This document shows positions 4,079 to 37,440 of a DNA stretch of 64,000 nucleotides, piece by piece. The notes beneath the pieces are model-generated. The model searched no databases. It was not told where the DNA came from and saw nothing but the letters and a program-made list of their open reading frames with translations. Numbering within the stretch: the stretch's first letter is position 1; each line of letters starts with the position of its first letter. Where the stretch lies: positions 656,298 through 720,297 of the forward strand of contig CP011213.1 of assembly GCA_001029735.1 (NCBI GenBank). The letters run 5' to 3'. Position numbers and translations under genes: made by a program. The stretch is from Berkelbacteria bacterium GW2011_GWE1_39_12 (GTDB lineage: Bacteria; Patescibacteriota; UBA1384; UBA12157).

Positions 4079-4984
4079 ATGACCGTTATTGAAGTTAAAA
4101 ATCTAAGTAAAAGTTTTGGTAAAGTTAGGGCTGTCGAAGATCTAAATTTTTCAGTGGAAAAGGGTGAGATATTCGGTTTTTTGGGCCCGAATGGTGCTGG
4201 TAAAACCACGACAATAAGATGTATCATGGATTTTGTTAAACCCACAAGTGGTGAAATTAAACTATTGGATAGGAATGCTAACATCAACTCGCACTGCCTA
4301 AAAAATAAGATCGGTTATTTGCCGGGCAATGTTAAACTTTATGAGTCCTGGTCAGGGAGTGATCATTTTTCTCTTTTAGAAGCGATAAGTGGGAAATCTA
4401 ATAATCTATCCATGCTTGTTGAAAAATTAGACTTTAATCCTGGAATGAAAGCATACCAACTTTCTAGTGGAAATCGCCAAAAATTGGGTTTAATTATGGC
4501 ACTTATGCATGAACCAGAAATACTAATCATGGACGAGCCCACTGTCGGATTAGACCCTTTATTACAAAACACGATTTACGATATTCTAGAAGATCTAAGA
4601 TCCAAGGGAACAAGTATTTTTATGTCTTCGCATAATTTACCTGAAGTGGAAAGGCTTTGTAACCGAGTTGGAATAATAAAAGACGGAAAGATGATCGCTC
4701 AAGAAAGTATTGATAACCTAAGATCAAAACGGATTCACAGAATTACGATTAATTTTAATGATAAATTTGCAATACAGGATTTTGTTTTTGATAGCGTAGA
4801 AGTTGTTGAAACTTTTCCTGATAGAATTGTCCTTTCGACAAAGGGAGACATCAATCCTTTGATAAAAAAGCTTTCAAATTACGAAATTCAAGATATTAGT
4901 ATTGAGCATGCTTCATTAGAAGAGGTGTTTCTGGAATTTTATGCGAAAGACAAGACTCAAAAGGAGGATAAATGTGGTCAATAA
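4079..4984 (+). CDS. ABC transporter ATP-binding protein (ABC-2 type)
   Basis: Walker A GPNGAGKTT, signature LSSGNRQKL, Walker B ILIMDEPTVGLD. ATG at 4079 chosen over the upstream ORF start. Confidence 0.85.
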   Translation: MTVIEVKNLSKSFGKVRAVEDLNFSVEKGEIFGFLGPNGAGKTTTIRCIMDFVKPTSGEIKLLDRNANINSHCLKNKIGYLPGNVKLYESWSGSDHFSLLEAISGKSNNLSMLVEKLDFNPGMKAYQLSSGNRQKLGLIMALMHEPEILIMDEPTVGLDPLLQNTIYDILEDLRSKGTSIFMSSHNLPEVERLCNRVGIIKDGKMIAQESIDNLRSKRIHRITINFNDKFAIQDFVFDSVEVVETFPDRIVLSTKGDINPLIKKLSNYEIQDISIEHASLEEVFLEFYAKDKTQKEDKCGQ

Positions 4985-5772
4985 TAAAAAGAAATTTCAG
5001 GGACAGAAGGGGATCGCTATTGATATATAGCGCCTTTTCGGTAGCACTACTTTGGATGTATATTGCCCTATATCCTTCATTTTCAAATCAAACTGGCTCT
5101 TTGGAACAACTGATAGCATCTTACCCCGAAGGTTTTTTAAAAGCTTTTAATTTCGACATAAAAAGTTTTACAACGGTCGAAGGTTTTTTGGCAACGGAAC
5201 AATTTTCTTTTGTGTGGCCGCTGCTTGTAATACTTTTATCGTTAAGTTTCTCGGGAAGTGCTTTTTCTGGTGAAATTGAGGATGGGACAATGCAGATTCT
5301 CTTATCTCAGCCAATAAGTCGACTCAAACTTTTTTTTAGTAAATATCTATCCGGGCTTTTGATGATAATTCTCTTTACTTTTATATCTATCTACACGGTC
5401 ATTCCTTTAAATATGATATATGACATTCCCTATAAATCCGATAATTTCTTTACTTTGATGATTTTGGCTTTGCTCTTTGCGTGGTCAATTTATTCAATTG
5501 GCATTTTTTTCTCTTCAATCTTTTCTAAAAAAGGTAAAGTTTTGTTTGTTACGGGAATGATTTTAGTTGTAATGTATGTGTTGAATATAATTTCGAGCAT
5601 CAAAGATAGTTTGAGTGATTTGAAATATTTTTCTTTTTTTTATTATTTCAATCCAGCAAAAGCACTTGTATATAACCAGGTTGACTACTGGTCTTATTTG
5701 GCTTTTGGTATAGTTATTATCTTTTGTAGTGTGGCGGGTTTGATCTATTTTAACAAAAGAGATGCTATTTAG
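4972..5772 (+). CDS. ABC-2 family transporter permease
   Basis: 266-aa six-helix hydrophobic protein that overlaps the stop of the upstream ATPase. Confidence 0.6.
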   Translation: MWSIIKRNFRDRRGSLLIYSAFSVALLWMYIALYPSFSNQTGSLEQLIASYPEGFLKAFNFDIKSFTTVEGFLATEQFSFVWPLLVILLSLSFSGSAFSGEIEDGTMQILLSQPISRLKLFFSKYLSGLLMIILFTFISIYTVIPLNMIYDIPYKSDNFFTLMILALLFAWSIYSIGIFFSSIFSKKGKVLFVTGMILVVMYVLNIISSIKDSLSDLKYFSFFYYFNPAKALVYNQVDYWSYLAFGIVIIFCSVAGLIYFNKRDAI

Positions 5773-8754: not shown

Positions 8755-9024
8755 TTAGCGTCGTTCGCGCATTGGTCTGGCAACGTTGACGGTCAAAGGT
8801 CGACCTTCAATTTCTTTGCCATTCATGGCTTCGACAGCTTTGTTTGCAGCTTCTTCATCTTTTAATGTGACGAAGCCGAAACCTTTTGAGCGTCCGGAAA
8901 ATTTGTCAGTGATGACTTTGGCTTCAACTACTTCACCGAATTCGGCGAAAAGTTGTCCCAAACCTTCATCATTGGTGCTGTATGGGAGGTTTCCAACATA
9001 CAGTTTGTTCTTTTGTTCTTCCAT
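8755..9024 (-). CDS. RRM-type RNA-binding protein
   Basis: RNP2 KLYVGNL and RNP1 KGFGFVTL motifs in an 89-aa protein. A long structured 5' UTR and a terminator hairpin sit at 8655-8700. Confidence 0.8.
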   Translation of the reverse strand: MEEQKNKLYVGNLPYSTNDEGLGQLFAEFGEVVEAKVITDKFSGRSKGFGFVTLKDEEAANKAVEAMNGKEIEGRPLTVNVARPMRERR

Positions 9025-11125: not shown

Positions 11126-12841
11126 ATGAGACAAAAACTTGTAATCAAAAAATTATTTAAGAACAAATCTTTCATTGTCACAGTTTCGATTTTATTGACC
11201 TTTGTACTCTTGTTGGGAGTAGTTATTTATCGTCAAAGAGCCTCAGCTATAGAGCTTACGACGAGTGCGAGCGTGATGATTTATGGAGCAAAAGGTGATG
11301 GTATAACAGACGACACAGCTGCCATTCAGAAAGCAGTAAACTCTGTGAATTTCGTCTATTTCCCAGGTGGTATTTATAAGGTTAGTTATCCGATCACATT
11401 AAGATCAAATGTTAGAGTCCATGGAGCTAGCGCTTCTAGTACTCACATAAAACAGGCTTTCAACACATCTGATTCAAATAAATCATCTGAAGAAAATATT
11501 TTCGTGGTCAGGGGCAATTATCCGAATTTTATAACAAATGTTACTGTTGATAATTTTACGTTTGATGGTATTGCCGGTACAGATTCTATTATAGGGACGG
11601 CGTTAGATGTGATTGATGGACGCAATATAGTATTCAGTGGCAATACTGTAAATAACATGAATTTATTTTCAAGTGGAGTTCACTACCCAATCAATGTTTG
11701 GGATGGGACTTCCGATCCGGCCAGGACTGCAGGATTAACGAACGATTTACAGCTAAATTACAATATTTCTGTCATTAATAATACTGGTGCTATAACTACA
11801 AAATCTCCTAACCGTGGCTTGGCTATTGGCATCAAGTATTCTAGGACTGTTCAGGTTAGCAATAATCGCCTCACTAATTATAATGAAGGCCTAACGTGGT
11901 GGGGTGGAGATGCAAATCCTTCAAGAGGCGGAAAAGTAGGTAATCCTCGTTGGGTTAAAAATTTAACTATTAAGAATAATAATGTTAAAAATACATGGGC
12001 AGGAATCTGGGGATCAATGGGGGATGGTATTTTGGTAGATTCCAATTATGTGGAAAGATGTGATGATGTTTGCCTTGATGCAGAAGGCAGTAATAATGTA
12101 ACCTTTTCAAATAATCAGGCTAAAAATGCCGGTTATGCCGTCTTAGCCACATGGCATTTTTCAAACAATGTTAATTTTGTTAAAAATACTGTTACACAGG
12201 ACGGCAGTTATTACAAAGGTGATAAAGGTAGAAATCTCTATTCTCATAGTAACGATACCAACCTTGTTGGTAATATAAACATTAAGTTAGAGAGTAATTC
12301 ATTAAACTATACAGGTGCTGATGGCATTGGTTATGTTACAAAATCAGCCTCTAGAACATTTAAAGCCAATCTGAACTATTTGAAAAACGTGGTGTTTAAG
12401 TTTGACCAAAATAATAGCTGTGGGTTCCTATTAACAAGTAATACTTTTGATCTTACAAAAAATATTGGGAACGAATCCGTCATCTACGCTGATAAAGTTT
12501 GGCCAGATGGGGCTTCAGCTATTTGCAATGCAGTCGTTCAAAATAACCAAATAAAATCTTCGGTAAATCAAAGTTCAGCTCTTGCTGGGATTGATATTTC
12601 GGCGACTGGCTATAATACAACTACTGATAATACTATTTCCGGCAACAGTATAGCAGGCTTTGCAAAATCCATTCACATTTATGGTAATAGTGGAAATATT
12701 GGTATAATTGAAAAATTTCATATCTTGAATAATAAAGTTTCTGGTCGGATTGTAGATAACTCACCAAAGGGAAGATCAGTGAACGATTTCTCTGGTAATG
12801 TAGATTTTAGCGGTAAAATAATTACACCCGTTGTACAATAA
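11126..12841 (+). CDS. Membrane-anchored right-handed beta-helix (pectin-lyase fold) protein
   Basis: N-terminal TM anchor, then YGAKGDGITDDTAAIQKA (the Pectate_lyase_3 or GH28-type N-terminal motif) and N/G/T-rich repetitive beta-helix sequence. Confidence 0.55.
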   Translation: MRQKLVIKKLFKNKSFIVTVSILLTFVLLLGVVIYRQRASAIELTTSASVMIYGAKGDGITDDTAAIQKAVNSVNFVYFPGGIYKVSYPITLRSNVRVHGASASSTHIKQAFNTSDSNKSSEENIFVVRGNYPNFITNVTVDNFTFDGIAGTDSIIGTALDVIDGRNIVFSGNTVNNMNLFSSGVHYPINVWDGTSDPARTAGLTNDLQLNYNISVINNTGAITTKSPNRGLAIGIKYSRTVQVSNNRLTNYNEGLTWWGGDANPSRGGKVGNPRWVKNLTIKNNNVKNTWAGIWGSMGDGILVDSNYVERCDDVCLDAEGSNNVTFSNNQAKNAGYAVLATWHFSNNVNFVKNTVTQDGSYYKGDKGRNLYSHSNDTNLVGNINIKLESNSLNYTGADGIGYVTKSASRTFKANLNYLKNVVFKFDQNNSCGFLLTSNTFDLTKNIGNESVIYADKVWPDGASAICNAVVQNNQIKSSVNQSSALAGIDISATGYNTTTDNTISGNSIAGFAKSIHIYGNSGNIGIIEKFHILNNKVSGRIVDNSPKGRSVNDFSGNVDFSGKIITPVVQ

Positions 12842-12962: not shown

Positions 12963-14192
12963 TTAAGCTTTTTCAGTTAGCCTCTTAAGTGCCAAAACAT
13001 ACGATGCTTGTCTTAAATCAACATCATATGTATCAGCTGTTTCGTAAACCGCATCAACAGCCGATTTCATTTTAACTTCCAACTTTTTAAAGACTTCTTT
13101 TTTAGTCATTTTTTCTTTGTGAACATTTTGATACCATTCAAAGTAACTAACGGCCACCCCGCCGGCGTTTGCTAATATATCAGGAATAACCAAAACTTCT
13201 TTTTTGGTCAAAATTTCATCCGCTTTAGAAGTTGTTGGACCATTAGCCATTTCTAAAACAATTTTCGCTTTTATTTTATTAACGTTTTCTGTGGTAATCG
13301 CGTTGCCTAGAGCCGCCGGAACGATGATATCGACAGGCAGCTCTAATACCTCAGCCGGACCAATATTTTTAGCGCCCTCGATACATCCTTTTAACTTGCC
13401 ATTTTTTTCTTTGCATTTAAAAAGATCATCAATGTCTTTAATGCCTTCGGGGATATAAATACCACCGTGTTCTTCAGAAATGGCTACGACTTTGTAGCCT
13501 GCTTTTACCAAAAAAACGGCTAAGTAAAGTCCAACATTGCCAAAACCTTGAATAGCAACTGTTAAATTTTCTGGTTTTTTATATAGTTTTTTAACGATTT
13601 CTTGCAAGACGTAATATCCACCCAAACCAGTTGCTTCTGTTCTTCCTTCTGATCCGCCAAAATCAATTGGTTTGCCGGTCACGACTGCTAACTCTTTCTT
13701 ACCGACTACCTTAGAATATTCCTCAACAATCCAGCGCATGATATTAGGATTCGTGTTGACATCGGGTGCCGGCACATCAAGCTTCGGGCCGATTATTGGT
13801 GCAAGTTTTCGTGTAAATTCGCGAGTTAGCTCCTCTAATTCTGTAACTGATAACTTTTTGGGATCAACACAGATACCGCCTTTTGCACCGCCGAAAGGAA
13901 TATCTACAACTGCATTTTTGATTGTCATAAGCGTTGCCAAGGCTTTCACTTCTGTCATATCAACGTGTTGATGATAGCGCAAGCCACCTTTGTACGGGCC
14001 TTTGGTGTTATCATGTTGAACGCGATAACCTTTGAAAACTTTTACTTTTCCATTGTCCAGTTTGATTGGAATAGAAACCTCAATAATACGATCAGGGTTT
14101 AAAATTTTACTTTCCGAAAATGAATCAAGTGGAATTTTGTTGGCTGCGATTTTTAGTTTTAGCTTAGTTCTCTTCCATGGGTTACTCATCAA
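12963..14192 (-). CDS. gdhA: Glutamate dehydrogenase (Glu/Leu/Phe/Val dehydrogenase family)
   Basis: KGGLRYH, active-site GGAKGGI, and Rossmann GFGNVG motifs. Confidence 0.9.
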   Translation of the reverse strand: MMSNPWKRTKLKLKIAANKIPLDSFSESKILNPDRIIEVSIPIKLDNGKVKVFKGYRVQHDNTKGPYKGGLRYHQHVDMTEVKALATLMTIKNAVVDIPFGGAKGGICVDPKKLSVTELEELTREFTRKLAPIIGPKLDVPAPDVNTNPNIMRWIVEEYSKVVGKKELAVVTGKPIDFGGSEGRTEATGLGGYYVLQEIVKKLYKKPENLTVAIQGFGNVGLYLAVFLVKAGYKVVAISEEHGGIYIPEGIKDIDDLFKCKEKNGKLKGCIEGAKNIGPAEVLELPVDIIVPAALGNAITTENVNKIKAKIVLEMANGPTTSKADEILTKKEVLVIPDILANAGGVAVSYFEWYQNVHKEKMTKKEVFKKLEVKMKSAVDAVYETADTYDVDLRQASYVLALKRLTEKA

Positions 14193-14205
14193 TCCTCCTG
14201 CTTAG

Positions 14206-14460
14206 TTATAAGCCTAATAATTTATTTATCTTTGACTGATCAAATCCTACCACAATTTCATCATCTATCCAAAGCTGAGGAACACCCATTTGGCCTGACT
14301 TTTCAACCATTTCATCTGCGGCATGGTGATCGATTGAGACATCCTTGTTCTCAAATTCAATGCCTTTTTTGTTTAAGTATTGTTTTGCAATTACACACCA
14401 AGGACAAGTCGGTGTTGAAAAGACTATGACTTTTGACTGCTTTTTTGAAGTTTCTTCCAT
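14206..14460 (-). CDS. Glutaredoxin-like protein (NrdH/YruB type, CPWC active site)
   Basis: 84 aa with VIVFSTPTCPWCVIAKQYL, a thioredoxin-fold CxxC motif. Confidence 0.7.
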   Translation of the reverse strand: MEETSKKQSKVIVFSTPTCPWCVIAKQYLNKKGIEFENKDVSIDHHAADEMVEKSGQMGVPQLWIDDEIVVGFDQSKINKLLGL

Positions 14461-14470
14461 GATACCTTTC

Positions 14471-14752
14471 TTATTTAATTATTTCTTGTAGCTTAATTAT
14501 TTGTTTCACTAACGCGATGCCTTTATCTGTTAAACCATAATTCTTTTTTTGGCCGCAGCGTTTTTCTTCGATAATTTTTCTTTTTTCTAAAATTTTCATA
14601 TGATATGATAGTAAATTTTTAGGGATTCCAATTTGTTCGACTAAGTCGCATCCACAAATATTTTCATTGCACTCAAAAAGCTGCAATAGAATTTTAATTC
14701 TGTTTTCGTTAAATATCGAAGTAATTTCCTGCACATTTATTTTTTTATTCAT
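14471..14752 (-). CDS. ArsR/SmtB-family HTH transcriptional regulator
   Basis: 93 aa with a winged-HTH core (ICGCDLVEQIGIPKNLLSYHMKILE). Confidence 0.7.
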   Translation of the reverse strand: MNKKINVQEITSIFNENRIKILLQLFECNENICGCDLVEQIGIPKNLLSYHMKILEKRKIIEEKRCGQKKNYGLTDKGIALVKQIIKLQEIIK

Positions 14753-14807
14753 TGTTCAACCTCTATTGAACTATACTGCGTTAGCGCACTTTTTGTCAAG
14801 TGATTTT

Positions 14808-14840
14808 TAAAAACAGCATCTCACCAGATGCTGTTTTTAA
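14808..14840 (-). terminator. Rho-independent terminator downstream of the ABC-F gene
   Basis: Perfect hairpin AAAAACAGCATCTcaccAGATGCTGTTTTT flanked by A- and T-runs (bidirectional). Confidence 0.5.
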
Positions 14841-14876
14841 ATTAGTCCAATATTACCGATGTTCTTAAAATATAAT

Positions 14877-16328
14877 TTAGATTTTTTCTAAATTTAGTTC
14901 TTCGTCAAATTTTATCTGTGAAACAAAATCAGGCATGTGACTAACCATGATCATGGCGCCTTGATATTCATTTACTGCCTTAGCGATGATTGGTAGATGG
15001 CGAAAATTAACGTGGTTAGTAGGCTCATCTAAAACTAAGAGTCCGGGTTGCATTAATACGAGCCGCGCAAAACTTAATAATCCCTTTTGACCTTCTGAAA
15101 GTTCGTTTACTTTGTGCCCCATCAAGTCTCCTCCAATTAGAAAACCGGCGGCAACAGAACGCAAGGTTAAAATGTCAGTATCATCAATTAGGGCACTGGT
15201 AAGAGAATCAAAAACTGTTTGATCAAAATCTAAATTCGAAAAATCTTGACTGTAATAGCCTGCGCGAACTTCGTCTAAAATTTTTGCATTCTCATTTTTA
15301 CCGGAAACTAAAGATCTTAAAAAAGTGCTTTTACCCACGCCATTTGGTCCAGTGACGATTAAATGCATTTTTTTGCGTAATACTAAATCAACGTTTTTTA
15401 TTTGTGGCTCGTGATTGTGAATTACCTTTATGCCATTAATTTCGACAATTTTTCCAACAATATCTTGAACTGGAATCGTAAAATTTCTAATAGTTTTGTC
15501 TTCGCGTCTAATATCAACCATATCTTCTTCTAGCTCAATGGTTTCGTCTTTTAATTTCTTGGCGAGTTTTCTCATTTTCCCGCCCTTGTTGGCAAAAAAG
15601 TTCACTTTTTCCTTGCGGTCGATAATTGTTCTTTTAAGCTGCGCGTTTTTTCGTTGTTCGCGCTCGACTCGTCGAGTAATTTCTTCTACAACTGAATAAT
15701 AATCGCCGACATAGCTTTCGATTTTCTTGGTGAAGATGTCAAGATAGATAACTCCTTCAGTGAAGCAATTTAGGAAGTCGGCGTCATGGGAGATAACAAT
15801 GACAGTCTTTTCGTACATAACTAAAAATTCAATTAAGCGATCGATTCCTGCTTGGTCAAGGTTATTAGTTGGCTCATCTAGAAGTAAAATATCAGATTCT
15901 TGAATTAAAGCAAATGCCAACAAAAGCCTTGCTTGCTGTCCTCCGGACAATTCGCCGACGCGTCTATCGGTCGGTACATCCAAATTCACAGCAGTCATAA
16001 CCTTATAAATTTTGCTTGGTAAATCGTTCGCTGGCTCGTCGAAAGCTTTGGCAAAGTATTCGTTTACTGTTAGAGAAAAATCGTCACGCGCTACAACCTG
16101 GTGAGCGGTCGCGATAGAAGCATGATTTGTAACGGACACTTGGCCTGACTTAGGTTTTAATTCACCCGTAATTAATTTAAAAAGAGAGCTTTTACCCGCA
16201 CCGTTTTGACCCATTAGCGTTATTTTGGCTGATTTTCTCACGCTAAAACTGGCTCCATCTAAAATGGGCTTTTCGTGTTGGTATTCAAAATACACTTCAT
16301 CAAATCTTAAAATTACTTCTTCGGACAT
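14877..16328 (-). CDS. ABC-F family ATPase (two tandem ABC domains, no TM domain)
   Basis: Two Walker A motifs (GQNGAGKSS, GPNGVGKST), two signature/Walker B sets, and an inter-domain charged linker. Confidence 0.8.
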   Translation of the reverse strand: MSEEVILRFDEVYFEYQHEKPILDGASFSVRKSAKITLMGQNGAGKSSLFKLITGELKPKSGQVSVTNHASIATAHQVVARDDFSLTVNEYFAKAFDEPANDLPSKIYKVMTAVNLDVPTDRRVGELSGGQQARLLLAFALIQESDILLLDEPTNNLDQAGIDRLIEFLVMYEKTVIVISHDADFLNCFTEGVIYLDIFTKKIESYVGDYYSVVEEITRRVEREQRKNAQLKRTIIDRKEKVNFFANKGGKMRKLAKKLKDETIELEEDMVDIRREDKTIRNFTIPVQDIVGKIVEINGIKVIHNHEPQIKNVDLVLRKKMHLIVTGPNGVGKSTFLRSLVSGKNENAKILDEVRAGYYSQDFSNLDFDQTVFDSLTSALIDDTDILTLRSVAAGFLIGGDLMGHKVNELSEGQKGLLSFARLVLMQPGLLVLDEPTNHVNFRHLPIIAKAVNEYQGAMIMVSHMPDFVSQIKFDEELNLEKI

Positions 16329-27429: not shown

Positions 27430-27758
27430 GGGGCTGTATAGATTCGACGGGAAAAGTTCCTAATAATTTCAAGCCGAGCAGGTTACGAGTCTCGTAAAAT
27501 CCGTGACAAAATCAAACGAAAAACCTTCGTTTACCCCTGCTTTAGCTCTAGCTTAATCGCTTCGGCTAGCAGCGTCTCCTCATTTGTCGACTGAATGAAT
27601 GATACGAGGCGTTACAAATCAGTCTGCTGCTTATTGAGATATCTTTGGTAAATAGGCAAAAGAAAACGAAAGAACAATTTTGCTTCGCAAAATTTAAGCT
27701 TGTCAATGATTATTAATGCTTTTTTTGGACAGGAGTGCAATTCTCCTCAGCTCCACCA
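27430..27758 (+). ncRNA. ssrA: tmRNA (SsrA)
   Basis: 5' GGGGCTG...GATTCGACGGG matches the tmRNA tRNA-like 5' end. Internal tag reading frame ends ...GCT TTA GCT CTA GCT TAA (…PALALA*). 3' T-arm AGGAG-TGCAATT-CTCCT, acceptor CAGCTCC, then ACCA. Confidence 0.8.
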
Positions 27759-27791
27759 AATGAGAATCAGAAAATTTCTGGTTCTTTTTTG
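27759..27791 (+). terminator. tmRNA terminator
   Basis: GAATCAGAAAATTTCTGGTTC hairpin followed by TTTTTT. Confidence 0.55.
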
Positions 27792-27990
27792 TTGCTCGCA
27801 AACCAGATAATAGGGCTTATTTGAGGGGTGCAAACTTTTTCGTGAGAATTTACTATTATTTCGCCCGGAAACAGCAGTTGTTTACACTTTACCCGACTGG
27901 CACGATCAAGTTCCTTCCAGACCATGAGTTTTTGGTCGATAAACTTTAACGAGAAACGAATGAAGGTCTCTATGATTCTACCAATTTATA

Positions 27991-28100
27991 CCATTTCGAC
28001 GATTTTCGACCTTTTTCGACCAATACCGACAATTACCGACAATATCCGAGGTTTTTCGAGGATTTTCCACTATTTTCCATTAAAACCACTGTTTTCCAAT
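27991..28100. repeat. Eleven directly repeated 10-bp units (iteron array, consensus NNTTTTCSAC, grading into DnaA-box-like TTTTCCACT)
   Basis: Units read ccatttcgac, gattttcgac, ctttttcgac, caataccgac, aattaccgac, aatatccgag, gtttttcgag, gattttccac, tattttccat, taaaaccact, gttttccaat, at exactly 10-bp spacing. Confidence 0.7.
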
Positions 28101-28270
28101 GAAATTCAAATTGCATCAATGATCACAAGATCTTCGACACCTGTTTGGCGCCGTGTGCCGATTTGTGCACTCCTTGCAGCGTTGGTCCAACTCATGCTCG
28201 ACAGATACAAGTGCTTGAACTATAATCAATGTAATATTACCTACCTATTTAATTAAACGTGGGGGGGGGA

Positions 28271-28918
28271 ATGATGGATATTGATAGAATATTTTGCGAA
28301 CCCAAATTTTCAAAAGATGAATACATCTCAAAATATGGTGATGGGTATTCTAATTTGTATTTATTAAGAAAAGACATCTGGTGGTGCCGCGGAATCGATC
28401 CAAGTACTAAAACTAAAATATCGAATGATGCCGGCGCTCCATTCGCGGCTTTTTTATTGATCAGGATTCTTTTTAACTACATCGTCCACCTCTCTGGTAC
28501 AGATTACCAAAATTACATAAGAAAATACTTACCAACAGATCTTTCTGCAAAAGAGGCTGAAATTTTAAACCGCCTACGAAATGCACTCGAGCACTTAAGC
28601 TACAACTTAGTATGGACGCCGGACATCAAAAAAGGTGAAAAAGGTAAAATAATTTATTTCGCAGTAACTGAAGAAAATACTGAATCTCTCATGGAAATGA
28701 TAGATGAACAAGAAAATGAAGAAACGTGGATCGTGAATATAGACCAATTACATCAGGCCATTGAATCATCTATAAATATTCTATACAAAGATGTGATCAA
28801 GAATGATCAACTCTCTAAAGATATATTAGCTCTTGCGGGTGCGCATAGCATGCATGTAGTAGAAAAGAAGATTTTATTAGATACAGTAAAAAGCAGAAGT
28901 AAAAGTCATAACATATGA
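28271..28918 (+). CDS. Hypothetical protein with HEPN-type Rx4H motif (Abi_2/AbiD-F-like?), start abutting a G9 tract
   Basis: LNRLRNALEHLSY contains R-x4-H, the HEPN/Abi_2 catalytic motif. A G9 homopolymer at 28261-28269 directly precedes ATG 28271, and an in-frame GTG lies at 28259. Confidence 0.4.
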   Translation: MMDIDRIFCEPKFSKDEYISKYGDGYSNLYLLRKDIWWCRGIDPSTKTKISNDAGAPFAAFLLIRILFNYIVHLSGTDYQNYIRKYLPTDLSAKEAEILNRLRNALEHLSYNLVWTPDIKKGEKGKIIYFAVTEENTESLMEMIDEQENEETWIVNIDQLHQAIESSINILYKDVIKNDQLSKDILALAGAHSMHVVEKKILLDTVKSRSKSHNI

Positions 28919-30121
28919 AATTATTATTAAAACCTATAAATTCCTTTACCTTTCAGGATGTATCTGACTTCTGTTCCGAAGGCTATCTTGAAAATGTCCA
29001 ATTAGACTACAAAAAGGACTTTTCACCAAAAGGTGTCGCAAAGCATTTTGCATCTTTTTCTAATACCAGAGGGGGTCTAATTATATTTGGAGTTGAAGAG
29101 GATGAAAAGACTGGCAAACCTACAAAGTGGGATGGTTTGAACAATGATTGTAAATTTGAAGATCAAATATACCAACGACAAGGAAGGTAAGGTTTTTGTT
29201 TTATTAAGGATTTTTGAGGGAGATAGAACCCCATATTATATTCTTAACGACCCAAATATTTACATCAGAACCGGCAGTATAACAAAAAGATTTGAAGAAA
29301 TTGCACATCCCGATGTTCAAAAAATGCTCTTCGAAAAGAAGAATGAAGCCAAAAAGACATGTAATTTAAACAATGAAATAGCTGCTTCAATTTACGACAA
29401 CAAAATAAACCAGAGCCAGCTTGAATTAGACCGAATGAAAGCTACTGAATTACAAAAACCGGAAGAAGATAGAAAAAAATTGTTTTCCAAAAGATTAGGG
29501 ATTGATGGTGTTTCGATATCTGCCATAACCCTTCAGCCTTATTATCCGGCAAAAAACATGGTTCAGCCAAAAACACTAATGGATGAAATTAACGAATACA
29601 GGGTACTTCTACATCAAGCGCATTACCCACAACAAGAACGAAGTTTTACCCCTATACCAAATGGCATTTTTGCCTTCCATTATAACGATAGGAGTGGCGG
29701 CATAAGATCTGAACAAATATTTACGAACGGATTATTTTGCGACTATTTTGATATATCAGAATACAACCCAGATACAAAAGAAAAAGTATTAGCCATTTCA
29801 CACTTGATCGTGAGGCTAAAATTAATATTACATTCTGCTAGGAAATTTTACGTTAAATATGGTTATCAGGGTGGCCTAACTGGAAATATCAACATCACAA
29901 ATACTGCTGATGCAAGATTGGGCGATATACATAGATTTGATTGGGGTGATTTAGAGCTAACTTTCCTGCCCAGCTTGAACGTTCCATTTGAACTGGACAC
30001 TGTTATCCTAAATGACGATGAGAATCTGAAGTTGTTTCTAAGAGATAGAATCGAAGAGATATATTGGTGTTTTGGACTTGATGTTGTACCAAAAAGCCTC
30101 ATGGACGCATTGCTGGCATAG
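28915..30121 (+). pseudogene. AlbA_2 / Schlafen-like domain protein, disrupted by a frameshift near 29140-29190
   Basis: Frame 1 (28915-29190) encodes ENVQLDYKKDF...VAKHFASFSNTRGGLIIFGVEED (AlbA_2 core). Frame 2 (29144-30121) continues with KIKYTNDKEGKVFVLLRI...YIRTGSITKR, the usual downstream part of the same domain. Confidence 0.55.
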
Positions 30122-30204
30122 TGCTAATCCTTTAAGGGATATTGAAACCGTTGTCTAACTTGTATCTCTCGAATTCGAATGATAGGATCTAGCGCCAGCG
30201 CTTA

Positions 30205-30252
30205 GTTTCCTCAAGGATAGGGTGCAAACTTTTAACAATCAGCTCCACCAGT
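30205..30252 (+). repeat. Degenerate copy of the tmRNA 3' end (att-like) followed by a terminator-like hairpin
   Basis: GGGTGCAAACTTTTAACAATCAGCTCCACCAG compares with tmRNA GGAGTGCAATTCTCCTCAGCTCCACCA. It is followed by AACAGGtcaaaatCCTGTTTTTTTT. Confidence 0.5.
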
Positions 30253-30352
30253 ATCAAAATAACAGGTCAAAATCCTGTTTTTTTTGTATTAAAAAAGGCT
30301 CGCGAGGGGTCGTGATATTCTCACAAGCCTTTTTCGCGAGCCATTAGAATGC

Positions 30353-30745
30353 TCACCTTTTGAAGCCATCGAAATGACTTCCTTTGTGCTTGACGATATT
30401 TGGTGGAAATGCTGAGAGTTCCTCGGCGAAATGAGCAAGCTGTACTTTCTCTGCCTCAATTGCTTTCATTTGCTTGTTCAGTTGTTCGATTTGTAGCTCT
30501 ATGCCCAGTTTTCCAATTTCACTTGAATCAACATGGTCTTCGCATACGCTTCCGATGAACCACTCTTTTCCTTCTGCGTAGAGTAGAATGGCATAAAGTG
30601 GTTGTCCTGGGGTGACGGGCTCTTTACCCACAACGCATCGAATCTTTTTCCAGCCATTGTCGGAAAACCATGGTTCCGAAGGTGCTTTACTTGGACTTAT
30701 GACAATTCGGATTGCCGACTCTGACGTTGTTGAATTACTGTTCAT
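30353..30745 (-). CDS. Hypothetical protein (islet cargo)
   Basis: 130-aa ORF with an RBS and no recognisable motif. Confidence 0.35.
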   Translation of the reverse strand: MNSNSTTSESAIRIVISPSKAPSEPWFSDNGWKKIRCVVGKEPVTPGQPLYAILLYAEGKEWFIGSVCEDHVDSSEIGKLGIELQIEQLNKQMKAIEAEKVQLAHFAEELSAFPPNIVKHKGSHFDGFKR

Positions 30746-30892
30746 TTCCGATCAGCCTCCTAGATGTGCGGTTTGTCTTTTTTAGACACTACATAATAGC
30801 ACATATAAAATTTAAAGTCAATCCTTTCAGTGATAATCATTTAAGGAATGTATCTAATATGTATTGTTCATAATCTAAATACAGAATTTCTC

Positions 30893-30990
30893 TCCATCTT
30901 CTGGTTTCAGCAATGATTTCGTGTAAACTTTTTCCGACCAGCTCCACTTAAATGAGAATCAGAGACCATTTCTGGTTCTTTTTTGTTATT
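30893..30990 (+). repeat. Second downstream copy of the ssrA 3' region including a near-identical terminator
   Basis: ...ATGATTTCGTGTAAACTTTTTCCGACCAGCTCCACTTAAATGAGAATCAGAGACCATTTCTGGTTCTTTTTTG compares with ssrA ...ATGATTATTAATGCTTTTTTTGGACAGG...CAGCTCCACCAAATGAGAATCAGAAAATTTCTGGTTCTTTTTTG. Confidence 0.6.
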
Positions 30991-31040
30991 ACAAATAGTC
31001 GATAGTTAATTATTCCTATAGCCTATGATATGATCGTCTT

Positions 31041-31709
31041 ATGAAACTACTTTTAACCTCAACTGGAATTACCAATAAAACAATCGAAAATAAATTTATC
31101 GAAATGGTCGGCAAACAACCCGAAGAGATGATTGTGGCTTACATTCCAACGGCCGTAAATGTTGCTCGGCCAACGGATAAACGCTGGATTATTAATAATC
31201 TTATTGGTCTCGATAAAATGAAAATCGGAAAAATAGACCTTTTGGATTTCTCTGCGATTCCCCAAGAAATTTGGCTTCCAAGATTAAAACAAGCCGATGT
31301 AATCATGGTTGGTGGCGGAAACCCCTATCATTTGATCTATTCAATGAAAAAAGCTGGTTTAGATAAAGTTCTAAAAGAGCTATTGGAGGAAAAAGTTTAT
31401 GTTGGGTGTAGTGCAGGCTCGGTGATTTTAGGAAAAGATATTGTCACCACTGCCCCTAAAAAATATTGTGAAGAAATCCCTGAATTTGAAGGGGATAAAG
31501 CGTTAGAATATATTGATTTTAGTATTAGGCCACATTTTTATAATCCCGACCGTCCTCAGTACACCGATGAAACAACTCAAGAATTAACAAACAATTTTCA
31601 GTCAACTTTTTATGCCATTGACGACAATTCGGCAGTTGTAATAGATGATGATCAAGTAAACGTGATTTCTGAAGGCAAGTGGAAAAAGTTTGAACCGATA
31701 ACTAAGTAG
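31041..31709 (+). CDS. pepE: Peptidase E (S51 family dipeptidase; Asp-X dipeptidase / cyanophycinase-like)
   Basis: LLLTSTG N-terminus. VIMVGGGNPYHLIYSMKKAGL and VYVGCSAGSVILG align with E. coli PepE IVIVGGGNTFQLL... and LYIGWSAGANLA (catalytic Ser region). Confidence 0.7.
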   Translation: MKLLLTSTGITNKTIENKFIEMVGKQPEEMIVAYIPTAVNVARPTDKRWIINNLIGLDKMKIGKIDLLDFSAIPQEIWLPRLKQADVIMVGGGNPYHLIYSMKKAGLDKVLKELLEEKVYVGCSAGSVILGKDIVTTAPKKYCEEIPEFEGDKALEYIDFSIRPHFYNPDRPQYTDETTQELTNNFQSTFYAIDDNSAVVIDDDQVNVISEGKWKKFEPITK

Positions 31710-31858
31710 CTCTAAATATTTTCAAAAATAGAATCAGAATAAATCTCTGTTTTTTTGTATTATTAAACTCTTTAATATTGACTTATCTTTATTTTTGCCT
31801 TAAAATAAACAGTTCTTGAGTAACAAGAGCGCGTGATTTCGGAACTAGGAGGGTGCAC

Positions 31859-32956
31859 ATGAAAAAACTGCTTTTTATTTACCACGGTGGTACAATCGGT
31901 CAGATTCCGGAAATACGAGAGGGTGGCCGAATTATTCTTGTTGTGCCAGCTGATGGAAGTCAGTTTCGTGAGGTTTGCTTACCAATTATCAGTCAGTATG
32001 ATGACTTCTTTGAAACTACGTTCGAGGTCATTACTACAAAGGATTCGACGAACCTTAATCAGAAAGATTGGGAAAAGCTCATCTTTAGGATAAAGAAGGC
32101 ACAGGATGATGAAGGTTTCGATGCTGTCGCAATTGCACACGGGACGGACACGTTGCCCTATACTGCAACTGCTCTGTCTCTTGCGTTGCATGGAAGAACT
32201 CCTGGTAGAACAGGTCTACGAATTCCCGTTTGCGTCACAGGTGCCCAGAACCCGATTTATGACGAAAAAGGGGATGGGCGCACGAATCTTGCTCGTATGC
32301 TTGAAACTCTCAAGCAGGCGATCATCCTGGGTATTGCTGATGTGATGGTTAACTTCGACAAACGTGTATTGCTTGGTTGTCGGACGCTGAAAGTAAGTGA
32401 GCGACGATATGACGCTATGCAGTCATTGTCTTCGCCGGACGTTGGTGAAATTGATAGCTCAGGTGTCCATCTTAACTCGAGCTTACTTCGCAAAAGAGCA
32501 GATGCAGAAGACAAATTGCTTCTTGCACCGAAGTTCGGTCGTGGTGTGGTCGGCATTGAGCTTGTGCCAGGGCTTGAGCCAAGTCTGATTCTTGGATTTA
32601 TCGCCAATGGTGGTGTGGCTGGGATGGTTCTAAAGTCGCTAGGGGAAGGTAATGTTTGTTGTGAAGGTGAGTTCAGCCTAATCCCAGCAATCAAACGAGC
32701 GACTGAGGAATATATGACGCCGATTTTCATCACCACAAAGTTCGCTGGTGGAAGCTCGGGGGCATGTCATTACGAAACCGGTTACGAAGCCATAAAAGCT
32801 GGTGGCATTGCCTGTTTTGATCATACAGACGTGGCGGTTGATGTGAAGGTGATCTGGTTGATTGGCAATGGCATATGTGCCACTGTGGATGATTTCAAAA
32901 AAGCGATGGCTACAAGCTTCGCTGGTGAAGTTACTCCTCCTACAGAGTTGGTCTGA
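31859..32956 (+). CDS. L-asparaginase (asparaginase/glutaminase family)
   Basis: IYHGGTIG (the TGGTIAG motif with catalytic Thr) and AIAHGTDTL (the HGTDT motif). SD GGAGGG before ATG 31859. Noticeably GC-richer than the flanks. Confidence 0.8.
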   Translation: MKKLLFIYHGGTIGQIPEIREGGRIILVVPADGSQFREVCLPIISQYDDFFETTFEVITTKDSTNLNQKDWEKLIFRIKKAQDDEGFDAVAIAHGTDTLPYTATALSLALHGRTPGRTGLRIPVCVTGAQNPIYDEKGDGRTNLARMLETLKQAIILGIADVMVNFDKRVLLGCRTLKVSERRYDAMQSLSSPDVGEIDSSGVHLNSSLLRKRADAEDKLLLAPKFGRGVVGIELVPGLEPSLILGFIANGGVAGMVLKSLGEGNVCCEGEFSLIPAIKRATEEYMTPIFITTKFAGGSSGACHYETGYEAIKAGGIACFDHTDVAVDVKVIWLIGNGICATVDDFKKAMATSFAGEVTPPTELV

Positions 32957-33085
32957 GATGATCGAACTTACGGGCCCCTCGTTATTGTTATACGAAGGGT
33001 CCTTTTTATATACGAATACATTTATATAACATAGCGCCAATCAAATAAGGGATGCATCTAATCTAAACCGCTCATATTCTGAATG

Positions 33086-33155
33086 CAGGATCTCTCTCCA
33101 GCGCCTGGTTTCGGCGATGATTTCGTGTAAACTTTTCCGACCAGCTCCACCAAAC
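33086..33155 (+). repeat. Third downstream copy of the ssrA 3' region
   Basis: TCTCTCCAGCGCCTGGTTTCGGCGATGATTTCGTGTAAACTTTTCCGACCAGCTCCACCAAA is about 85% identical to 30893-30953. Confidence 0.55.
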
Positions 33156-33407
33156 TTCGCCACAATAGATTGTGGCTTCGCTTGGCGAGCCATATATAAA
33201 AGCAGAAGTTTGCCCAGCGTAGTCCCACGCCGTTACACTCTGTGGTTCATTAGTACTCATCGGGAAGCATTTTTATTTGTATCTTTCGTAATCTGAATAA
33301 AGTATTTTTGTACAGCATGTTTTTATTAATTGAAAATATATTTAATTGTAAAAAGAGCTTTTTTGTGCTATCATCACTGATGGATTCTGAAAAGGAGGAT
33401 TTCCGAT

Positions 33408-33869
33408 ATGGTAAACGAGAAAGAGGGTACGTGTAACATCATTTCGTCCTTTGATCCCGGAATTTGGAGCGACATCCGCAGGGCCAATGAGTACATGACT
33501 CAGTCTGCAATGACACACTTCCTTAATGCCGAAGAAAGAATAGCACTAGCTCAGTTCATCAACGCTATGAGATGTGCATATGTTCGCTGGGAGGGCAACC
33601 CGGTGGAGGAACGTATAGCGGCGCTGAAAGCAATGCGGCTACCATCAGAAGATAATGGTCTGAATACAGTGAAACAAGTTGCACACGATGGGCACAACCC
33701 GTCTGAATTACGGATTATAGCTTTAAACAAACTCTACGAAGCCCAGATAAAGTTTAGTTTCAACGAACGGCCCGCTATTAGATCATTCATTCATGACATT
33801 AGTGTGCATGCATCCGATGATGCCGTTTGCACCGAGGCCCGACGCCTCTACCACCTTCTATCCATATAA
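33408..33869 (+). CDS. Hypothetical protein (GC-richer islet cargo)
   Basis: 153-aa ORF with SD AAAGGAGGA and an extended -10 box, and no recognised motif. Confidence 0.35.
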   Translation: MVNEKEGTCNIISSFDPGIWSDIRRANEYMTQSAMTHFLNAEERIALAQFINAMRCAYVRWEGNPVEERIAALKAMRLPSEDNGLNTVKQVAHDGHNPSELRIIALNKLYEAQIKFSFNERPAIRSFIHDISVHASDDAVCTEARRLYHLLSI

Positions 33870-33879
33870 GTGTCCCTAG

Positions 33880-33911
33880 GTCCCCGGAATGATTACATTC
33901 CGGGTTTTTTA
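33880..33911 (+). terminator. Rho-independent terminator
   Basis: CCCCGGAATGattaCATTCCGGG hairpin followed by TTTTTT. Confidence 0.55.
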
Positions 33912-34074
33912 AATTTTCGATTCGTCGGACTTCGACGAGATAAGGATCTGTTCCGAATCGATTTTGATGTAGACATGCGTGTATCGTCGGCTGTGAAGAT
34001 GTTTGTCAATGAGAGGAATTGGCAAGGGTAATTTGATAATACTAAAAGCATGTAGTTAAAAGTTTTTTTAGCTT

Positions 34075-34125
34075 ATGTTATGATCATCGTATGAAACTAC
34101 TATTAACCTCGACAGATAATTGTTT
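34075..34125 (+). repeat. Direct repeat of the pepE promoter-proximal/5' coding region (about 85% identity to 31021-31075)
   Basis: TAGCTTATGTTATGATCATCGTATGAAACTACTATTAACCTCGACAGATAATT compares with TAGCCTATGATATGATCGTCTTATGAAACTACTTTTAACCTCAACTGGAATT. It encodes MKLLLTSTDNCL* and lies just before rsgA. Confidence 0.55.
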
Positions 34126-35214: not shown

Positions 35215-35370
35215 AATTTTTTCTGGTATTTAGATTCTTGCAAAAAGACTGATGTATTCTTTTTTTAAATAACGTTGAAATGTGACAGCAGAGCATTTTT
35301 CTATTTATTTATCATCTTTGTAAGATTTTTGTATTAAAAAAGCAGGATTGGTTACCTGCTTGTTGTGAAA

Positions 35371-36161
35371 CTAGCCTGCACCGTCTGGCGCACCTACTTG
35401 GCTCAGTCCACCAGTACCATGGAGAAACACCATGGCGTCTTTATTGCCACCGCAAAGGACGTAAGTCGATGTGCCCAGTAAGATGCAATCGCGCTCTAAA
35501 ACGCCATTCCATGACGACAGTCCCCACTTGTCTGTAATGTAGAGCCGATCGCCGCCAAAGCAGACCTGTTCGGCTGCCTTGACCTTGTCCACCATCTGAA
35601 CTCGGCCTTTGGTACTGACAGTGTAAAGACGAGATTCCTTATTCTCGTCTGCCGTGAAGTAAATCACCCCACCTGGAGTGACAGTAATTGATTTCAGTTT
35701 CAATCCAAGGTTGACTACTGTCGGTTTGTTGTGATTAACAATAACCAGACAGCTGTCCCCACCAAACACCATTAGTTCAGCGGAGAATGCCGGTCGAACT
35801 GGCTTGACGAACGCTTGCTTGAACAGAACCTCCGAGTTGGTTCCACTATTCCAGCGTCTAAGCCGTCCATTTTTGTCATAACCGACTATCGTCCCACCAT
35901 CCGCGATCGGGCAACTCGTCCGAATTCCGGTTAGCTCCATGGGTGAAACGCCAAAGGGATCCTGGTTTGGGCGTATTTCGGCTACTTTCCGTCGACCAGC
36001 GCTAGAAATACTCCGTCGTTATAGCTGACGGAGTCAAAGTCAACCTGAGGGCTGATTTTGCCCAGGAAATCCAGAGGGCGGTCGGTGGGCGGGCCACCCG
36101 CCAAAACCGGTAGTGCAACCAACAAGATCAGTATTACTGAAAAACAGAGTAGCTTTTTCAT
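35371..36161 (-). pseudogene. Secreted hypothetical protein split by a frameshift (signal-peptide ORF 36161-35984 + body ORF 35940-35371)
   Basis: Minus-strand ATG at 36161 with SD GGAGGAGAA encodes MKKLLCFSVILILLVALPVLAGG... and stops at 35984. The 189-aa body ORF is open in another frame across the junction. Confidence 0.4.
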
Positions 36162-36302
36162 TTCTCCTCCATAATCTCTTCCATATCACATGGAAGGAAT
36201 GCATGAGGTTAATTCAGCCTTTTTCATGAAAAAGTCAACACTTACAGTTGAACTTCGAGTGCTTAAGAATTTACAAAAGCTGGAGAGACAAAATAGAAAA
36301 CT

Positions 36303-36713
36303 TTATTTTTTTTCCAAGAGTTCTCTGTAGGCTTGTTCGTCGCCATAGGGTAAAAAATCTTCTTGATGTGGTTGTCGAATAAATCCGTTGACCTCTTTAT
36401 GTTTAATGCCGCACCAATATTTTTCTGTATCGCCACAAATTCTAACTAAATATGCCGCGAAACCATTGGCGTAACCGCAATACATGCAATAAAATTTGTC
36501 GAGTGGGGATAAATAAGTGAGCTTTTGGCGATCGATTCTGATATAGTTGCTTCTTTTTACGATCGGTATACCGTATAGCGGAAAGGCGACATGATGATAA
36601 ATCTCAAGAAAAAAGTCCAAAATTAGGAGTGGGATTGACATGCCCCAGATAAATGGCATGGCCAATCGATGTCTCAATGCTTTATGTGGGATTTTGGAAA
36701 TTTTTTTATACAT
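36303..36713 (-). CDS. Hypothetical membrane-associated Cys-rich protein (CMYCGYANG...YWCGIKH)
   Basis: 136 aa with one TM helix and a conserved-looking Cys cluster. Family not recognised. Confidence 0.35.
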   Translation of the reverse strand: MYKKISKIPHKALRHRLAMPFIWGMSIPLLILDFFLEIYHHVAFPLYGIPIVKRSNYIRIDRQKLTYLSPLDKFYCMYCGYANGFAAYLVRICGDTEKYWCGIKHKEVNGFIRQPHQEDFLPYGDEQAYRELLEKK

Positions 36714-36816
36714 AAATATATTTAAACATGTTAGTTAAAGTTGTGCAACCGGTTGATTATCCTTTTCTGCTATGTTAGAATTATTTTGAAATCGGATTTC
36801 CATCTGGAGGCTTAAC

Positions 36817-37305
36817 ATGACAAGAGATTATGCGGTTGAGAACGTCAAGAAAGTATTGAGCAAAGCCATGACAGATGTTTTTGAAAAGCTTGACATCACG
36901 GTAATGGGTGTAGGCTGGTCACTTCGAACAAGAGACGATTATGTAATCGTCGAGAAAGATTTTATCGGCGGCTCAGGTGTTAGTCTGCCGGGGCGCGCAG
37001 AATGCCTCGATTTTGCTGACATATTCGTTCGCCAACTTTATATGTACCTGTGCGCCAAAGGTAATGTGTTGAGCCGCCAAAGCGGCGAACAGCCAGGTGC
37101 CATTGTCACCGATCATTATATCTTTTCTATTTATGGTCAACATTCGCCGGCGCTGGCCGATGAAACTATCTGTCTCGTCGCCGCTGTTCGTCTTGGCTGG
37201 ATCACTCTGACAAAGGCCATCGAAATGGCCAAGATTACTGATGACAATCATCCAGACGGAAATACAGTTTTCCTTGGAAACAATTGGAATTTGCATGATC
37301 TCTAG
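36817..37305 (+). CDS. Hypothetical protein (GC-richer)
   Basis: 162-aa ORF with SD GGAGG-like and no motif recognised. Confidence 0.35.
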   Translation: MTRDYAVENVKKVLSKAMTDVFEKLDITVMGVGWSLRTRDDYVIVEKDFIGGSGVSLPGRAECLDFADIFVRQLYMYLCAKGNVLSRQSGEQPGAIVTDHYIFSIYGQHSPALADETICLVAAVRLGWITLTKAIEMAKITDDNHPDGNTVFLGNNWNLHDL

Positions 37306-37440
37306 ACCGAATAAAATCGGTCTTTTTTAATTAAAAATTACGTTGACAAGATGTAAAGAACACTTTACAATGAGCTTGAAAGAAATAAAAAATGGACAAG
37401 CAAAGCTTGTCGCGGAATTTTTCTAAATAAAGAGAAAAAT

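Follow-up and report, generated by a model that had tools for sequence, protein, structure and literature searches.

The ssrA islands of Dehalococcoides, the closest known system to the locus described here, occur in tandem and are bounded by a short ssrA repeat, with the 3' end of dsiB always overlapping attL (McMurdie et al. 2011, PMC3146451). We analysed a window of 64,000 nucleotides (nt) from Berkelbacteria bacterium GW2011_GWE1_39_12 (contig CP011213.1, positions 656,298 to 720,297), in which ssrA, the gene for transfer-messenger RNA (tmRNA), is followed by a row of small islets; coordinates given without a contig name are positions in this window. The region is probably what is left, in decayed form, of four or more small elements that were integrated in tandem at the 3' end of ssrA by a large serine recombinase. 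It is thus a known kind of structure in a decayed state, while the occurrence of an ssrA array in bacteria of the candidate phyla radiation (CPR) is new and a conserved, split-off tail is unusual. To our knowledge, descriptions of mobile elements are still scarce for Patescibacteria, as the CPR bacteria are also called.

The two systems share a large serine recombinase of about 520 to 540 amino acids (aa), which lies on the reverse strand by attL and runs with its 3' end across attL into ssrA, as well as a conserved motif just upstream of each repeat and many islands without an integration module. They differ in the repeat (11-13 nt in the acceptor stem's 3' strand here, 20 nt from the T-loop there) and in the islets, which are far smaller here (0.7-5 kb) and reside in a patescibacterial host. 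Islands that sit in genes for tRNA or tmRNA more generally resemble the locus in their intact target, which the island restores, their displaced 3' fragments in the same orientation and their arrays built from a reused attB (Williams 2002, 2003; Islander, PMC4383910). In the window, an intact ssrA and displaced fragments of its 3' end in the same orientation lie on one replicon; a recombinase gene is reduced to a remnant of about 80 codons there and is complete in the relative L106, and the islets are absent from the same site in the distant relative L100. Classic islands, in contrast, have tyrosine integrases, longer identity and one integrase per island, whereas here we find a serine recombinase, 11-13 nt of identity (plus a terminator) and a pseudogene remnant. 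The first-pass annotation, which had only the sequence of the window, spoke of the classic footprint of integration into ssrA; the recombinase is of the serine type and not of the classic tyrosine type.

SCCmec elements with their Ccr enzymes, and cis-mobilizable elements built up by accretion, offer a further parallel, in which large serine recombinases target an essential single-copy gene at its 3' end and tandem composites arise, some without a recombinase; the differences are that ssrA, not rlmH (orfX), is used here, with one recombinase gene in place of the ccrAB pair and with orphan cargo. In SSV1-type archaeal integrases, attP lies inside the int gene, so that integration splits the gene, which is intact only in the excised state. 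The present elements would likewise partition their own recombinase gene on integration, if attP lay inside that gene as our model has it. The SSV enzymes, however, are tyrosine recombinases of archaeal viruses whose short N-terminal part is split from the catalytic part, whereas a serine recombinase here would have its last 36 codons replaced by ssrA antisense and would keep its catalytic domain when integrated. We also considered an integron and rejected it, as there is no IntI tyrosine recombinase, there are no structured attC-like sites, and the repeated segments are conserved in sequence and codon pattern.

The tmRNA gene is intact (27430-27758, + strand; Rfam RF00023, 114.7 bits, model positions 1-374), and core matching identified its last 11 nt, CAGCTCCACCA (27748-27758, + strand), as the attachment (att) core. 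The exact 11-mer starts on the + strand at 27748 (copy 0, in ssrA), 30240 (copy B) and 33142 (copy D), and a variant, CAGCTCCAC, occupies 30939-30947 on the same strand (copy C). A search allowing at most one mismatch returned four matches against 0.33 expected from dinucleotide shuffles, none of which reached four; three of the matches are named cores and the fourth falls within smpB. When each copy is aligned locally with the 3' region of ssrA, identity stops at the acceptor stem's 3' strand. What the first pass had seen, a recurrence of the ssrA 3' end in the same orientation, therefore stands for the final 11-13 nt at 30240, 30939 and 33142 and fails for the longer repeat, including the T-arm that it was thought to contain. 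ARAGORN gave no call for this ssrA (27430-27758) despite the full-model Rfam match, and the T-arm of the gene, GGAGTGCAATTCTCC, is unusual.

Intrinsic terminators follow cores 0, B and C, and the terminator scan found none beside copy D. The current ssrA terminator (27762-27792, + strand), located by the scan, by alignment to L100 and by tblastn of the L106 recombinase, has lost 2 nt and carries one substitution relative to the version shared by L100 and copy C, and tblastn places its minus strand within the recombinase reading frame. The terminator at copy C (30954-30986, + strand; terminator scan) is identical to the native ssrA terminator of L100, and copy C alone retains a terminator of the ssrA type (local alignment score 70, against a shuffle maximum of 31). 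The GAATCAGA...TCTGGTTC terminator, which had been reported as part of every repeat, thus recurs at copy C, but not at copy B, where a different terminator is found (AACAGG...CCTGTT then a T run; 30261-30287, + strand; terminator scan), nor at copy D. Because copy C has the terminator native to L100 and the ssrA of the window has a variant, the distal copy appears to keep the older flank, as expected for attR; as far as the sequence can tell, the copy C terminator is a displaced older 3' flank of ssrA.

Immediately left of each displaced core lies an arm of about 110 nt. Copies B, C and D can be aligned with one another over 80-125 nt of this flank; C and D, said earlier to be about 85% identical, are indeed alike, at 80% over 98 nt. 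Read on the minus strand, the core is (TG) GTG GAG CTG, or V-E-L, and 36 codons run from its GTG through the arm in that same frame. Among six arm copies from five genomes, the differences at the first, second and third codon positions number 102, 72 and 189, and all six copies share one stop position. Such a concentration at the third position is a protein-coding pattern that points to purifying selection on the tail and appears as conservation at the codon level, a point in which the tail departs from the DsiB overlap of Dehalococcoides, reported to be divergent and probably non-functional (PMC3146451). The arm homology continues for about 12 nt past the stop codon. The additional 60-110 nt that the first pass had called ssrA-like are therefore something else: they carry this opposite-strand coding signature, and beyond the core they do not align to the ssrA of the window, of L100 or of L004, which also disposes of the idea that the arms are ssrA copies with the T-arm deleted. 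A structured RNA or attC-like hairpin was rejected as well (no consensus structure; -2.27 kcal/mol, covariation term 0.02), and a helix-hairpin-helix protein resembling the C-terminal domain of the RNA polymerase alpha subunit was dropped, there being no family match in its support.

The copies differ in their state of preservation, and two of the three full tails in the window are broken. Arm B with its core (30116-30250, - strand; core 30240-30250), recognized by tblastn (E 3.5e-9) and DNA alignment, is interrupted by an in-frame stop and by 10 inserted nt; it belongs to a subtype ending ...LDNGFNIP, of which P0124 is an intact counterpart. Arm C with its core CAGCTCCAC (30827-30947, - strand; alignment, tblastn and codon analysis) keeps an intact tail open reading frame (ORF) of 36 codons at 30947..30840, which reads VELVGKSLHEIIAETRRWREILYLDYEQYILDTFLK and then stops. 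In arm D with its core (33029-33152, - strand; core 33142-33152; alignment and codon analysis), the loss of 1 nt at codon 5 throws the ORF out of frame. A partial fifth arm (KILYSDYERYK; 33262-33316, - strand; nhmmer E 0.006, and tblastn) has no core. Intact tails occur elsewhere in L003, L004 and L005, found by a peptide scan of metagenomes, and in L101. The motif GTG[CT]AAACTTTT occurs in the window four times only: every arm has it once, and the fourth occurrence belongs to the recombinase remnant described below. This fourth one, at 27826-27846, was initially taken for a fourth arm scrap and actually lies inside recombinase 3' coding sequence.

A word-index search of 5.8 billion proteins gave no match to the arm peptide, the GTDB genome representatives contained nothing similar, and neither the peptide nor the recombinase was found in viral contigs. 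When the 36-aa peptide was run through HMMER exhaustively, it recovered three short called ORFs (P0123, P0124 and P0126), which are public gene calls of 59-95 aa at att junctions. They are read-through ORFs across terminator antisense, core and arm, and not independent genes. Weak arm-like matches in L006 and L007, on a phage-like 279-kb contig, were judged to be chance hits forced by the search pattern.

P0123 led to L106, a 542-kb contig with an intact element at the same site. Its tmRNA gene (15637..15324) is convergent with a 522-aa ORF (13811-15379) that overlaps the last 56 nt of ssrA. The N-terminus of this protein reads ...ALCRVSSVSQ, and residues 5-141 match the Resolvase domain (PF00239, 42.9 bits against a cut-off of 23.3), followed in the correct order by below-threshold matches to the Recombinase (PF07508, E 0.014, residues 197-267) and Zn_ribbon_recom (PF13408, E 0.18, residues 298-328) families. 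Additionally, residues 195-460 match the NCBIfam XisF model (E 3e-10), and the CcrB model matches at E 1e-4; the likeness to Dehalococcoides is one of layout. From the Resolvase domain together with the weak but ordered Recombinase, zinc-ribbon, XisF and CcrB matches, we regard the protein as a divergent large serine recombinase. A comparison with the PDB sequences returned no match. The layout is that of the Dehalococcoides islands, with the 56-nt overlap falling in the tmRNA gene at 15324-15637, and the six-gene module described there (DsiB, DsiA, a RecF-like, a ParB-like and a Mom-like protein and one more) has no counterpart in Pfam domains beside the L106 recombinase.

The C-terminus of the L106 recombinase links it to the arms. 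It reads ...EKVCTPQISPIIWFVSNKKEPDMVSDSHL-VEL-GRIALPSKKRFDNL and then stops; here KKEPDMVSDSHL corresponds to the ssrA terminator read in antisense, and VEL is the core, read in the frame of the arm ORF. About 5.1 kb off, the opposite end of the element carries a full arm. At that end, attR, the 3' remnant of an older recombinase, a terminator, a degenerate core and an arm make up one continuous ORF of 95 codons, P0123, which displays what the C-terminus of an excised form would look like. Because the L106 recombinase crosses the core in the arm frame, we infer that the arm is the C-terminal tail of the recombinase in the excised form, and that integration would strip this tail off.

The same gene has left a trace in the window. 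Residues 423-499 of the L106 recombinase match 27773..28003 on the minus strand by tblastn (62% identity, E 5e-28), which marks the last 80 or so codons of a recombinase pseudogene with one in-frame stop, abutting ssrA as in the Dehalococcoides layout. The remnant is out of frame with the core through the 2-nt deletion in the terminator, and restoring these nucleotides in the coordinates of the high-scoring segment pair brings it into the V-E-L frame. Three independent recombinase 3' ends, then, enter the core in the frame of the arm. The first-pass statement that no integrase is present remains correct in so far as the 64-kb window contains no intact recombinase, and misses this remnant; no tyrosine recombinase was found in the window either. 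Its central proposal, successive integrations at the ssrA 3' end that left tandem decayed islets, is borne out by the remnant, by the islet-free L100 and by the terminator that copy C shares with L100.

We propose that the free element would be a circle with attP inside the recombinase gene, at the 3' end. Followed along the minus strand, this gene would there run through the antisense of the ssrA terminator (...NKKEPxMVSDSHL), the 11-nt core (V-E-L) and the 36-codon tail, and joining an arm and core to a recombinase 3' end gives the predicted junction ...GTGTAAACTTTTT..CAGCTCCACCAAATGAGAATCAGA.... Recombination at the core would give ssrA back its last bases and provide it with the terminator of the element. 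The integrated recombinase would lie convergent with ssrA, its last 15-17 codons being ssrA antisense, and its 36-codon tail would have moved, together with the core and the old ssrA flank, to the far end of the element as attR. Each fresh insertion at ssrA would shift the earlier elements outward, with the newest lying nearest to ssrA. In the window, this newest element would be 27759-30250, which keeps about 80 recombinase codons, the others having lost theirs.

The comparison with L100, which the first pass had asked for, agrees with this scheme. L100 is syntenic on the left (RNase Y, HU, ABC ATPase and permease) and on the right (helix-turn-helix HSP20, S16, KH and TrmD), and its interval from permease to HSP20 consists of ssrA, the terminator and guaA only, with no islets and no arm copies at the locus. 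A genome scan with an alignment of HSP20 returned only generic helix-turn-helix proteins of unrelated phyla. Tandem arms or att scars were found in L004, L101 and L108 as well.

Several observations weigh against the proposed history. L100 is distant (HSP20 68% identical, ssrA 80%) and so falls short of a true empty site at strain level. None of the databases searched yielded an excised or circular form, or a recombinase ORF with the 36-aa tail, and the 90% cluster of the L106 protein has a single member and hence no tailed, excised-form recombinase. The remnant in the window has no catalytic domain. Arm B would be part of the newest element and is yet the most degenerate. Copy D lies outside the copy with the ancestral terminator and has no terminator on its right flank, so a simple order of accretion fails at some junctions; this right flank resembles the arm flank of L005. 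Finally, the direct repeats at pepE and in L004, described below, are not predicted by the recombinase model.

Among the alternatives, the one that survives best overlaps with the proposed history and differs from it in present-day activity only. It holds that the islets are still-functional cassettes without a recombinase (cis-mobilizable elements), bounded by att sites that can still be used and moved into and out of ssrA by a serine recombinase acting in trans, be it encoded in another part of the genome or brought in by an arriving element, with ssrA as a platform for gene capture. The units are indeed small, of one or two genes each in the window (0.7, 2.2 and 2.5 kb), in L004 (0.77 kb) and in L101 (a single-gene unit); arm C is intact, and L105, from another metagenome, keeps the same junction of arm, core, terminator and a homologue of the orphan ORF130 that follows copy B. 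Contigs from assemblies of the same population break within the region, and Dehalococcoides islands without integration modules have been interpreted in this way (PMC3146451). We nevertheless consider present activity unlikely: only one full arm of three is unbroken, the AlbA_2 cargo gene is broken and so is the recombinase, the 64-kb window supplies no recombinase, the gene order is the same in all other assemblies of the population, and the circular junction was not found.

A second alternative, which we regard as very unlikely, would make the arm ORF an independent micro-protein gene, for instance for a directionality factor or a regulator, that starts at the GTG of the core and is no part of the recombinase. 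Every copy does have GTG, or an adjacent ATG or TTG, at the same place, the ORF is intact in five integrated contexts without a recombinase (C, L003, L004, L005 and L101), and the end of homology about 12 nt beyond the stop codon would suit a separate gene. However, the sequence ahead of the GTG differs from junction to junction and offers no consistent ribosome-binding site or promoter, the three independent recombinase 3' ends reach the core in exactly the frame of the arm, and B and D are decaying in place. An origin of the repeats in duplication on the spot, or in unequal homologous recombination, of the 3' flank of ssrA, with no site-specific integration, is hardly credible and largely refuted by the L106 recombinase and the window remnant, since, although the pepE 5' duplication and the L004 repeat of about 200 nt look like products of such events, ssrA is not the source of the arms, each compartment holds unrelated cargo, the base composition of ansA and of the ORF153 segment differs, a recombinase remnant abuts ssrA, and L106 has an intact recombinase-bearing element at the same site.

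If the recombinase tail is split off as we propose for this decayed array, the enzyme would have two C-termini set by its integration state, the 36-aa tail when excised and 15-17 residues of ssrA antisense when integrated. It is conceivable, though we hold it to be doubtful, that this tail swap is a built-in switch of directionality or activity, that small islets without a recombinase remain substrates as long as they have an intact tail and core, and that ssrA is a cassette-capture site in the reduced genomes of CPR bacteria. Were this true, the swap would do the job that normally falls to a separate directionality factor. An attachment site inside the recombinase gene, combined with a split-off piece conserved by codon, suggests a testable idea of how a serine integrase could tell its integrated from its excised state. 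Together with its relatives, the locus defines a family of serine-recombinase elements that target ssrA in Candidatus Berkelbacteria, and shows where small genomes acquire orphan or defence-like genes (AlbA_2, AbiE, CapR/DUF4379). Besides, compact attB/attP pairs with an 11-nt core in the near-universal 3' end of tmRNA may interest those prospecting for integrases.

The cores divide the window region into four compartments. Compartment 1 (27759-30250) contains, besides the recombinase remnant, a tandem repeat of 10-nt period, one orphan ORF and an AlbA_2 gene disrupted by a frameshift. The tandem repeat (27994..28077; Tandem Repeats Finder) comprises 8.4 copies of a TTTCGACGAT-like unit, begins exactly where the recombinase homology ends, and drifts to TACCGACAAT and ATTTTCCA; it resembles iterons or protein-binding sites and could serve as such. 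The cargo (28259..30121, + strand) consists of the orphan ORF at 28259-28918 and the AlbA_2/Schlafen gene in two pieces, 28915-29190 and 29144-30121 (Pfam PF04326, E 3.9e-7), with the frameshift near 29150-29190. The frameshift site may be polymorphic or hard to assemble, given that L019, a Logan contig from the same population, breaks off at about 29155. Compartment 2 (30251-30947) holds ORF130, a 130-aa orphan (30353..30745, - strand) with no family match and a single homologue, 82% identical, among the 5.8 billion proteins.

Compartment 3 (30948-33152), between cores C and D, carries two genes identified by Pfam on the + strand (31041..32956), a pepE-like peptidase S51 gene (31041-31709) and the asparaginase gene ansA (31853-32956). 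Compartment 4 (33153 to about 34031) contains the partial arm and the 153-aa orphan ORF153 (33408..33869, + strand), after which a terminator stands at 33883-33904. The guanine-plus-cytosine (GC) content is 47% in ansA and 43% both in 33153-34031 and in 35215-37440, against 37.5% for the genome. The contrast in GC between cargo and flanks that the first pass described is thus real for ansA and 33153-34031 and in part for 35215-37440, and is absent from the segment designated E1 and from pepE, each of which, at 36.5%, is like the genome. The search for island or defence genes among the cargo that it had suggested likewise gave a divided result, Pfam recognizing AlbA_2/Schlafen and no cargo ORF matching PHROGs or PADLOC.

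The proposed duplication of the pepE 5' end was confirmed. The promoter and first 8 codons of pepE (30982-31063) recur at 34032-34113 on the + strand with 76% identity (alignment score 64, against a shuffle maximum of 29), and this diverged second copy opens a leader ORF of 12 codons, MKLLLTSTDNCL, whose stop codon lies 2 nt ahead of the rsgA ATG (34132). From this arrangement, captured pepE signals may drive the transcription of rsgA and its translation by coupling. The repeat had been taken for the right edge of the region, which it is not, since by comparison with L100 the variable region reaches about 37440. Between rsgA and HSP20 there are also orphan ORFs of 48-50% GC (35371-35940, - strand; 36817-37305, + strand), with no att scars nearby. 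A comparable arrangement is found, independently, in L004, where a direct repeat of about 200 nt flanks a single-gene islet of 0.77 kb (4200-5260). That repeat spans the att core, terminator, promoter and 5' leader up to codon 7-8 (MEFSEVA), and the two genes that share this start are otherwise unrelated. In the window as in L004, the repeat stops some 22 nt inside a coding sequence.

The other relatives show further variants of the locus. L108 has two att scars about 100 nt apart (640-1010), followed by a histidine kinase gene, in the order arm, core and terminator of the L004 type, then 56 nt, then core and terminator of the window/L100 type. The islets of L101 (2747-5911) encode a protein of 501 aa, in which a CapR domain accompanies four DUF4379 treble-clef zinc fingers, and another of 483 aa with a weak EAD8 match, cargo that suggests, by its domains, a role in conflict or defence. 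In L106, Rfam places a LOOT RNA (12475-12601) inside the recombinase-bearing element and a DUF3800-V RNA (8910-9005) by an AbiEi/AbiEii pair just outside it. The neighbourhood and orientation of ssrA vary among these genomes: an ABC permease adjoins it in the window and in L100; in L004 and L103 it lies beside CHAP, methyltransferase and smpB genes, with the orientation flipped between the two; and in L106 it is next to the helix-turn-helix HSP20 gene, several kb from the cluster of CHAP, methyltransferase and smpB. These differences suggest inversions around the att region.

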